Shown here piece by piece: positions 6,001 through 9,000 of a stretch of 64,000 bases of DNA (positions are counted from its first letter, which is position 1; each line of letters starts with the position of its first letter). This DNA is from Escherichia coli (GTDB lineage Bacteria; Pseudomonadota; Gammaproteobacteria; Enterobacterales; Enterobacteriaceae). Location of the stretch: NCBI RefSeq assembly GCF_002854065.1, contig NZ_CP024147.1; one strand, 5' to 3'. The position numbers are program-made.

Positions 6001-9000
6001 CGGGCATCTGCTCCAGACGGCACTGGACGGTATCACGGTCAGCGAATATGAGCGTGACAGTCTGCACCGTCAGGTGATACGCACGCAGGGGAAACTGGCG
6101 ACGTTCAGCGGCTACAACGCCGACAACCGGTTAAGCTGGCAGCGCAGCCTGCCAGGTGGCAGCCAGAATCCACAGCAGGCCGGTACTCCCCCGGCGCAGA
6201 ACGACAGCGTGACGGCGCGGGACTATATCTGGAACGCAGACGGTGAAGTCGGCGGCATCAATGACAAACTGCGCGGTTGCCTGGTGTTCAGCTATGACCG
6301 CAGCGGCTGGCTGACCAGCCGCACGGGGCAGATGTATGACCATGACCATTATTATTACGATAAAGCGGGCAACCTGCTGACGGATGAGTATCAGGGAGCG
6401 GTGCTGGACAACCGCCTGCCGGGCTACGGGCGTGACCGTTACCGCTATAACGAATGGGGCGAACTGACAGAGCGCAGGGACCAGCAGCTGGAGTGGAACG
6501 CGCAGGGCCAGTTAACGCGGGTCATCAGCAGCAACAGCGAGACGCGGTATCAGTACGATGCGCTGGGCAGGCGCATCATCAAGGCGACCAGCAATCTCCA
6601 TACCGACCGGGGAGAACGAAGCCGGACAACGTTTGTGTGGGAAGGGTTCCGGCTGTTGCAGGAGACAACGTGGCAGGGAAAGCGGACATACCTGTACGAC
6701 GCGGAACAGCCGTACACGCCGGTGGCGGCCATCACCGGGCGCGGAGAGAGTCAAAAAATCTGGTATTACCATACGGACCTGACGGGCACGGTACAGGAGG
6801 TGACCGCGCCGGACGGGACGCTGGTGTGGGCGGGCTACCAGGCGGGATTTGGTGAAAACCGGGGCGACATCAGCAACAGCGGGGCGTACTTTGAACAGCC
6901 GCTGCGGCTGCCGGGGCAGTATTATGATGAAGAGACGGGGCTGCACTATAATCTGTTCAGATATTATGCGCCGGAGTGCGGGAGGTTCATAAGTCAGGAT
7001 CCGATAGGGCTGGCGGGTGGAATAAACCTCTATGCTTATGCTCCTAACCCAATTAGCTGGATCGATCCCTTTGGACTGGATTTACACCATATAATACAGC
7101 AAGAAATTTGGAAGGAGTTCAAAACAGATCTTAAAAAAGTCACCGGATATGTACAAAATGTCACGAAAAAGGCAGCCGACATGACAAACCTAATCGATCT
7201 GGATAAACCTTTTCATGGTAATCACCCAGCTTATAGTCAATATGTAAGAGAAGCAATCGAAGACCTGAAGGCTAATAATAACTTAACGTTGAAAGGATTA
7301 AGAGATTTACAAGATGATCTTAAAAAGAAAATAGGTGAAGCTCAAAAGTCTGGCAAAAATCTAAATGATTATTTTAAATCGGGGTGCTGATTATGAGATA
7401 CAAAAAGGTAACTGTTTCTTATGAGCCTGCAATCACAGGAAATAGTAAAGGAGGGTATTCAGTAGAAATAAAAGATAGACTCTCTTTTAATAGTCCTACG
7501 GAGAGAAAATACTTTGAGTCTTTTTTTGAAAATAATGATGAAAACTATAATAGAGTTTTTATCAATAATTTTGAAACTATTGATACAGTTTATCTAAAAA
7601 ATTTAATTTTATTTCCAAAACAAAAAAGGATAAAGGAAATTGATATGCTAATATTTTCCCCGCACAAACTCGGACTTAGTTTTATGATATCGGAGAAATT
7701 ATATAATATTATAACTAAATTTAAACTTCCTCCGTTCAATAAGATACCAGCTCAAATCAATACATTCAATACGAAGTATTTTTTGATCGGTTTCCCAATG
7801 ATACCAAAAGAAAGAATTGATTTAGATAAATCTATATTTTTTTGATACAAAAAAAAGAAGTGAATTTAATTTCAAATCATATGATGAATTCATCAAAATG
7901 GATTACTCTATTATACCTAAAAAAATATACCCAGATGTATTTTATGATGTCGATGTTATCGGTTTTCAGGGCAAAGGGCTATTTTTTTCTGACAGACTGC
8001 TTGATGCAATACAAAATGCCGGGATTGTAGGGTTGCATATCGGTGACACGGAAATGGAAATGAATCCGTAGATTGATACAGGAACTTTCACTTTTAAAGG
8101 GATCTTTGGTGTCTGCGATTTTATCTTTCTGTTGGTTATTTAGCAATCCGGGAACGATATTAATCCGCTGAAGATCCTGATTTATCTACGGGGTAAATGC
8201 CCGAAATATAGAAGGTTTTATATTGGATCATATGAAAGGGGATCTTAACCTTGAAAATGCCATCAGGAAAGATGGTGGATTTTATCATAGTTATAATGAA
8301 AATAATCTTGCAGAGGGACGAAAATATTTAAGCACGGAAGAAATTAGCAAAATCCTCGAAAAGGGTAGTGTAACTGATGTTGATAGTAAAGGGCACTTTA
8401 AAGCAGGAGGATGTTGAATGAATAGTATAATAAATAAAAATATAAAAAAATAGATATGATTACTAAGGGTATTAAAAAATATCCTCTTGGAGAGGACAAG
8501 CAAGAGATCTCAAAATTAATTTGCGATTTTGAAAAAATGCCACGTAAAGAATGTAGTGTGTTTTATGGTGTTTTTTTTAATGATAGTGAACTAGTAGATA
8601 AATTAATTAAGATTGCAAGATTTTATGAGGGTGATGATAAAATAACCATAAACGTAATATCCTCTTTGGGAAATATGTTCGTGCGATACAAAATATATCC
8701 ATCAGAAGAATTATATAATCTTTTTTTTCAACTTGAAAAGTAAGAGGAAAGTTAATTATTATGTTTCTTTGTTCATTTTTAGATTTCCTCAATTTAGGAA
8801 TTATAAATTTAAATGGGACTATATTTTATCTATTCCAGATATTTCACCAAAAGATAAATCAAAAAGAAACTTTTACTCTATAGTCAATAATATCGTTTTG
8901 TCGGGAGAAACGATCCCTGTTGAGTATAAAAATAGAGTTATTAGCTTGCTGGAAATGTTTAGTAAGGGAAATATGGGAAGCGTGTATAATGATGAATATA

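Follow-up and report, generated by a model that had tools for sequence, protein, structure and literature searches.

In a stretch of 64,000 nucleotides of the Escherichia coli chromosome (contig NZ_CP024147.1, assembly GCF_002854065.1; hereafter the window), a predicted immunity gene behind the nuclease-like C-terminal tail of an Rhs protein stops after 150 codons within a run of seven Ts (T7), and another frame then continues to read as protein. Is this a gene in decay, a site kept for its instability, or an error of assembly? The original prediction for this DNA had offered decay or a slippage-prone tract as alternatives; we find that both hold together, with runs of five, six, seven and eight Ts (T5 to T8) all present in E. 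coli. We consider it probable that the locus is a decaying toxin–immunity module in the remnant of a type VI secretion system (T6SS) island, broken by ordinary decay at a slippage-prone T run and not by a regulated switch. Loci from other genomes carry L numbers below (E. coli GF3-3 is L001 and XJ34 is L003), and proteins carry P numbers.

The immunity gene, its break and its toxin partner

The immunity open reading frame (ORF) is taken to start at ATG 7393, 2 nt past the toxin stop, because all homologues begin M[RK]YKK; the overlap with the toxin that had been proposed exists only if a GTG at 7384 is used, and ATG 7393 gives none. The AT-rich ORF does stop after ...KSIFF, and the break does lie in a T7 run followed by a run of eight As (A8), as had been read (Table 1). 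Beyond it the +1 frame is open and protein-like, although for 75 codons and not 76, a stretch with a chance probability of about 0.001 at the composition of this gene (29% GC). The two pieces joined match the intact 225-aa E. coli protein P0001, and a single-base slip does restore a protein, of 225 aa and not of the roughly 229 aa first estimated. In E. coli GF3-3 the run is T6 and the annotated protein has 225 aa, so that the window allele is one T too long and would be repaired by going from T7 to T6. The comparison of homologues thus overturned the expectation that T8 would be the intact state, T8 being a second frameshifted E. coli allele. The six Ts of the intact run specify the conserved Phe-Phe in ...S[IL]FFD..., and the extra T gives TTT TTT TGA, ending the 150-aa product (P0011). 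The T run and A8 are the two arms of a quasi-palindrome, T(n)G-ATA-CA8, whose predicted DNA hairpin strengthens from -3.8 kcal/mol at T6 to -4.9 at T7 and -5.7 at T8. In XJ34 the immunity gene has T6, yet it carries two other homopolymer indels (a G inserted after an upstream T7 run, and the A8 run one base short, at A7).

Two observations had been named in advance as contrary to a broken single gene, namely two separate genes in homologues and a second frame unlike any immunity protein, and neither was made: homologues are single genes of ~225 aa, and the second frame aligns with residues 151-225 of intact proteins. Close homologues are 225-228 aa long (E. coli, Citrobacter farmeri, Salmonella), and a profile search of 1.84 billion representative proteins gave 189 clusters at E<=1e-3, nearly all of 215-245 aa and matched end to end. 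AlphaFold2 with a 54-sequence alignment, superseding a run with 9 close homologues in which the predicted local distance difference test score (pLDDT) was 31.5, models a single alpha/beta domain (pLDDT 96.7, predicted TM-score 0.91) that has two helices and five strands past residue 150 (156-158, 173-178, 188-191, 195-199, 214-222). A reading of the region as two separate genes was rejected on the strength of the end-to-end ~225-aa homologues and the single modelled domain. Because the model shows one domain with strands and helices beyond residue 150, the 150-aa product, which would lack the last third of this compact domain, is unlikely to fold.

The family of the immunity protein emerges from its relatives and its predicted fold. 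The protein itself had no match in Pfam or NCBIfam scans; the Pfam family Imm11 (PF07791) is matched by three of its 54 relatives linked by hidden Markov model (HMM) at E<=0.001 (best 2.1e-10), and BLASTP and hhalign comparisons with the Imm11 protein of XJ34 were not significant (hhalign probability 1.5%). A Foldseek search of the PDB returned a sole match below 1e-3, 6a4c (MXAN_0049; E 4.5e-4, probability 1.00, TM 0.46). In the AlphaFold database, matches reach TM >0.9 to 225-aa proteins, and those named Imm43 or ‘Immunity MXAN-0049 domain’ have TM 0.55-0.93. MXAN_0049 is described as the immunity partner of the nuclease MXAN_0050 (PMC6627406). The immunity gene lies 2-3 nt past the RHS-AHH ORF in both E. 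coli and Citrobacter-type loci. The E. coli protein resembles MXAN_0049, Imm11 and Imm43 in fold, in size (~225 aa) and in its predicted role as partner of a nuclease toxin, and differs in having itself no Pfam or NCBIfam match. The missing profile matches and the non-significant hhalign comparison mark a divergent, unnamed subfamily; by its modelled fold the protein is a predicted relative, with one domain, of MXAN_0049 and the Imm11/Imm43 family, and the pair is a divergent member of a known toxin–immunity pairing. The main gain is one of annotation: ~225-aa ‘hypothetical proteins’ of Enterobacteriaceae, Bacteroidota and bee-gut bacteria acquire a family, as MXAN_0049-like immunity partners of LHHIIP-type AHH toxins.

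As an observation in its own right, residues 92-114 and 194-214 of the immunity protein (window 7666-7734 and 7973-8035) hold similar motifs, GLSFMISEKLYNII and GLFFSDRLLDAIQN, a likeness suggestive of duplication within the protein; hhalign gives the second a weak, non-significant alignment to a motif of the XJ34 Imm11 protein.

The toxin tail, directly after the Rhs core-end motif DPFGL, reads DLHHIIQQE...FHGNHPAYS...KSGC (coding 7079-7387, stop TGA 7388-7390), its first two stretches just as the original prediction described them. Its tentative assignment to LHH did not survive a profile search, in which Pfam LHH (PF14411) was absent from the matches even at E<=10. The tail matches Pfam AHH (PF14412) instead (E 3.1e-10, score 40.5, model positions 13-105 of 111), which supports the broader claim of an HNH/EndoVII-type Rhs toxin with an immunity gene behind it; the fusion products and homologues have precomputed PF14412 matches as well. 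The window tail is, from this profile match, a predicted Rhs C-terminal HNH/EndoVII-type nuclease of the AHH family. One AHH effector has been proven to act as a T6SS DNase, for which both His residues are required (PMC6971182), and the same paper, citing Ma et al. 2017, ranks Rhs-AHH first in frequency among nuclease Rhs tails. When the toxin alignment was searched as a profile against the PDB, no solved relative came up, the best hits being chance coiled-coil-like matches at E ~0.01.

Across 13 aligned toxin sequences LHH, N...L and PFHGNHP are invariant or nearly so, and homologues with both LHHIIP and PFHGNHP occur in Apibacter, Gilliamella, Bacteroides fragilis, Cellulophaga and others. 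The window departs from this pattern three residues past the catalytic His-His, where it has Gln for the Pro of LHHIIP. Pro occupies the position in all 12 sequences compared (11 homologues and GF3-3) and in the distant XJ34 AHH toxin (AHHLLP), hence in 13 of 13 others, and Gln is confined to the tssH'-'rhs fusion haplotype described below. The toxin of the XJ34 copy of the module itself, as distinct from this distant one, carries a CAA-to-TAA nonsense codon. Set beside the Rhs-AHH T6SS effectors (for example V2a and V3a of Agrobacterium tumefaciens 1D1609; Rhs2-AHH of Acinetobacter baylyi), the window shares a PF14412 domain directly past the Rhs DPxGL, an immunity gene next to it, both motif His residues and the downstream N...HGNH. 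It differs in having LHH for AHH and Gln for the conserved Pro, in a truncated Rhs without the N-terminal PAAR or loading region, and in the deletion of T6SS sequence from tssH to rhs.

Run lengths at the Phe-Phe site across strains

Tract lengths were tabulated over 27 loci. In the collection, 49 blocks list the exact 150-aa product, and the 23 contigs that we read are all T7 at the DNA level, a uniformity that follows from looking up the exact product. Its sources are several NCBI accessions (isolates) and ENA metagenome and Logan assemblies, including Illumina-style drafts. Wherever upstream sequence is present the T7 allele lies behind the same tssH'-'rhs-AHH(Gln) fusion, L016 having instead a Tn3-type element upstream, and gene callers list both a 150-aa and a 57-aa piece in all T7 loci.

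Within the fusion haplotype the run is T6 in L018 and L019 (protein intact), T7 in the window and L010-L017, and T8 in L020-L023, and these groups are only 2-7 single-nucleotide polymorphisms (SNPs) apart over 8 kb. Five derived SNPs mark the T8 group, two are private to L018, and none groups T7 with T8. The alignment points to at least two length changes within this shallow fusion clade, in which the SNPs are star-like (2-7) and too sparse to tell T8 derived from T7 from T8 derived from T6. T5 occurs in E. coli L030; contraction of the run must therefore occur too. Similarly, the Citrobacter-type 228-aa orthologue (L027-L029, L031) has T8 in the intact gene (TCT CTT TTT TTT GAT) and T7 in a frameshifted allele, and to judge from these alignments the Phe-Phe position is a recurrent frameshift site across species.

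The Phe-Phe site is not the only one to fail. Other E. coli immunity alleles show A8 to A7, A7 to A6 (at 7919-7925), a C deletion and indels in the upstream T7 run. By rough contig counts there are ~34 intact against roughly 100 disrupted alleles, about a quarter intact, counts that are not de-replicated by strain. From this allele series the T run appears to be a real slippage hot spot, one of several in an AT-rich gene, and template switching at the quasi-palindrome could help explain the expansions. The T5-T8 series provides a small natural data set on the mutability of a homopolymer joined to a quasi-palindrome, with no new mechanism called for.

The eroded island and the readings of the frameshift

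The setting of the module went unremarked in the original prediction, which missed the tssH'-'rhs fusion, an IS2 insertion, the Pro-to-Gln change and a frameshift in the neighbouring gene. The flanks of the locus are at least 99% identical to many E. coli genomes, and the region between them is the remnant of an aspV-linked T6SS island, between dnaQ/tRNA-Asp and yafV-ivy-fadE. The toxin–immunity module occurs in only three of 5,426 complete RefSeq E. coli genomes, at ~96% identity. The same island has been destroyed in different E. coli strains by three distinct large deletions: tssF::rhs in GF3-3, tssM::rhs in L004-L008, and tssH::rhs in the window and XJ34.

In the window the result is a 962-aa ORF (4502-7390) whose first ~300 residues are TssH/ClpV up to Walker B and whose C-terminal ~560 residues are Rhs, with no Rhs N-terminus; tssH beyond codon ~320, the N-terminus of Rhs and everything between them are deleted, and a full-length Rhs beside an intact T6SS cluster, as a functional T6SS-delivered effector would have, is absent from the window. 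The tssH part is 99.3-99.8% identical to the intact tssH of other E. coli, and the match stops at 5391; its counterpart in XJ34 is annotated ‘AAA family ATPase, missing C-terminus’, and the XJ34 junction as two pseudogenes. The 10-bp junction unit is present in two copies in L021 and XJ34, three in the window, L013, L018 and L020, and four in L010, L012, L015 and L017. This copy number sets the frame of the fusion, which in frame encodes 986 aa and with four copies is split into 354 + 652 aa; two copies are also out of frame. Native tssH already holds two overlapping copies of the unit, encoding LVGAGG. Base composition changes sharply along the module, from 61% GC in the Rhs core to 29% in the immunity ORF.

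The fusion has also lost its start. In relatives free of the insertion (L013, 6774-9734) the start of the fusion gene precedes the immunity ATG by 2963 nt, and in the window the corresponding ATG ORF (3094-3249) reads into an IS2 copy that sits ~110 nt into the gene, parting the fusion ORF from start codon 3094 and from its promoter. The two ORFs of this 1336-bp block match IS2 TnpB (3220-4125, E 1e-218) and IS2 TnpA (4083-4493, E 4e-83). The block is absent from L013, L015, L017, L018, L020, L021 and XJ34 and, among the loci compared, is found in the window only. The copy is apparently a recent, lineage-private event, being absent from all seven of these related loci.

Elsewhere the module stands as an orphan fragment behind other rhs tails (GF3-3, XJ34, L004-L009), and in the window it terminates the main, truncated rhs. 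Arrays of orphan rhs-CT/immunity pairs reportedly rearrange in the rhs loci of Salmonella and E. coli, and a module that is an orphan elsewhere and terminal on the main rhs here is what recombination between core repeats would be expected to produce. The window differs from such arrays in that a locus without the rest of tssH and the N-terminus of Rhs cannot arm the cell.

How the locus came to this state may be reconstructed as follows. In its working form the module would have been an Rhs protein with a C-terminal AHH-type DNase, delivered by the T6SS into neighbouring cells, with a 225-aa immunity protein of the MXAN_0049 fold (Imm11/Imm43), encoded 2 nt downstream, shielding the producer. 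We infer that a deletion at a 10-bp Chi-containing microrepeat then joined tssH at codon ~320 to mid-rhs, that IS2, in the window lineage alone, also parted the fusion from its start, and that the toxin acquired the Pro-to-Gln change beside its catalytic His-His. With a toxin that is probably not produced any more as something active and deliverable, the immunity gene would have become dispensable for self-protection and free to drift, and replication slippage may then have added one T to T6, yielding TTT TTT TGA and the 150-aa product. It is because the fusion lacks the N-terminus of Rhs, the T6SS is deleted, IS2 interrupts the gene, Pro has become Gln and the neighbouring gene is frameshifted that the decay reading seems clear and a functional switch unlikely. 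The locus thus documents the erosion of a T6SS effector island in E. coli by deletions at Chi-containing microrepeats, insertion of an IS and a substitution adjacent to the active site, followed by homopolymer frameshifts in the immunity genes.

Several points weigh against this account. This AHH tail behind a full-length Rhs with an intact T6SS was found in no genome, among the E. coli loci compared and in Citrobacter contigs that break inside rhs, and the working form as described would come from what is known of the families. The T run changed length at least twice within a shallow clade in which a longer run, the A8 only 5 nt away, stayed constant; such clustering exceeds a naive expectation from run length, and either the quasi-palindrome or selection could be responsible. 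The inactivity of the toxin and the non-function of the 150-aa product, moreover, are likely, but not certain, from what the sequences have lost, and an intact immunity gene might yet benefit its bearer where neighbours have the toxin, which would leave selection on it less relaxed than we presume.

In two other readings the T7 allele retains a use; jointly we judge them improbable, though not negligibly so. One holds that the run is kept as a reversible immunity switch, on at T6 and off at T5, T7 and T8. The coexistence of all four lengths in E. coli, three of them inside one near-identical haplotype, is what such phase variation would produce among close relatives, and the T8-on, T7-off states of the Citrobacter-type orthologue and the hairpin that gains strength with each added T fit it as well. 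Like a contingency locus, too, the gene changes frame with a single-base change in the run, and several lengths coexist. Typical mononucleotide phase-variation tracts, however, are longer than 6 T, which is all that the E. coli on state has, and these six merely encode a conserved Phe-Phe. Other homopolymers, a non-homopolymer site (the C deletion) and the next gene are broken as well; the T7 group and the T8 group each have SNPs of their own, as stable lineages and not flickering states would; and the T6SS is already dead, the associated toxin probably so. With a short on state, several other broken sites and partner genes that are probably dead, the locus behaves more like a decaying pseudogene than a contingency locus, and a switch is accordingly a reading to which we give little credence. 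The other reading is that the T7 allele still yields some full-length protein, by +1 ribosomal frameshifting at UUU-UUU-UGA or by slippage of RNA polymerase. U-rich sites beside stop codons are known to be shift-prone from studies of prfB and UUU-Y, and TTT TTT TGA would permit the P-site tRNA-Phe to re-pair from UUU to UUU at +1, giving the exact wild-type ...SIFFDTKK...; the persistence of the T7 allele in many isolates is in keeping with this, and an apparent pseudogene would then still give low-level protection against toxin-carrying neighbours. The upstream sequence AAATCTATA, however, has no Shine-Dalgarno-like stimulator, and seven Ts are short for efficient transcriptional slippage. 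The homologues are in-frame single ORFs with T6, leaving the shift site unconserved, and alleles beyond the reach of this mechanism, T8 and T5, are tolerated. Such leakage is unlikely, if marginally less so than a switch. Taken as one wider proposal, that T(n)G-ATA-CA8 is a hypermutable on/off immunity site in natural E. coli or that T7 is partly functional through a +1 shift, the idea is an outside chance.

The remaining readings fare worse still. Homopolymer indels are the commonest error on several sequencing platforms, and the extra T might have been such an error in one assembly; T7 was read at the DNA level in contigs from several NCBI accessions, ENA and Logan (23 of 23), which excludes a one-off error and makes an artefact scarcely credible. 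A functional split gene, in which the 150-aa piece would go on neutralising the toxin by itself or together with the 57-aa ORF that starts at ATG 7898, can draw on the calling of both pieces in all T7 loci and on a motif shared by the halves (GLSFMISEKL and GLFFSDRLL) that hints at an internal repeat. It runs counter, however, to a family in which all 189 clusters are single ~225-aa proteins and to a model in which the C-terminal strands are integrated into one compact domain, and the 57-aa ORF would be without residues 151-168; we regard it as very improbable. Decay at a slippage-prone run, under relaxed selection and with homopolymer indels dominating the mutations, is thus the most economical reading and the one that we prefer.

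Table 1. Features of the module and its surroundings, in window coordinates
Feature	Position	Strand	Basis or remark
tssH (clpV) 5' end, start codon to IS2 insertion point	3094..3203	+	mapped from IS-free relatives minus the 1336-bp insertion
IS2 insertion	3204..4539	-	1336-bp block; ORFs 3220-4125 and 4083-4493
Rest of truncated tssH, AAA+ domain through Walker B motif	4540..5391	+	identity to intact tssH
tssH'/'rhs deletion junction	5373..5402	+	three tandem 10-bp units CGCTGGTGGG/T, each with Chi octamer GCTGGTGG
Rhs core C-terminal part (YD repeats), ending DPFGL (7064-7078)	5403..7078	+	translation; Pfam RHS_repeat, TEN_YD-shell and RHS on the same product in relatives
Predicted nuclease toxin domain of the AHH family (HNH/EndoVII, His-Me finger), 103 aa + stop	7079..7390	+	Pfam AHH
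Gln codon CAG in place of Pro (LHHIIP)	7097..7099	+	alignment with AHH homologues
Predicted immunity gene, first 150 codons and premature TGA	7393..7845	+	ATG 7393; ends ...DLDKSIFF; TGA 7843-7845
T7 run	7837..7843	+	intact allele T6, by alignment with GF3-3
Predicted immunity gene, last 75 codons in other frame and stop TAG (8069-8071)	7844..8071	+	aligns with residues 151-225 of intact proteins
A8 run	7849..7856	+	after T7 and GATAC; shortened to A7 in XJ34-type alleles
Next orphan immunity gene, frameshifted	8456..9038	+	alignment with L004 (193 aa) and L005 (95 aa)

Neighbouring orphan genes

The next orphan immunity gene downstream is also broken in a T run: here and in many relatives it has T8 (8721-8728 in the window), and the intact 193-aa allele of L004, L006, L007 and L008 has T7. 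Between the two immunity genes lies a 64-aa ORF (8223-8417, ...GHFKAGGC) that looks like the C-terminal remnant of a further orphan toxin, the rhs part having nearly disappeared. Further along, within the orphan array, an IS3-family element occupies 9323-10536 on the minus strand (348-aa and 115-aa ORFs), and at the same site the relatives L010, L012 and L014 have a group II intron reverse transcriptase or other IS fragments. An orphan rhs fragment of 299 aa, with the core end ...DPLGL and an unclassified tail, follows (10912-12086, the interval continuing into an 87-aa ORF, its probable immunity gene), and downstream of that ORF are SymE (12131-12364, minus strand), yafV and ivy.

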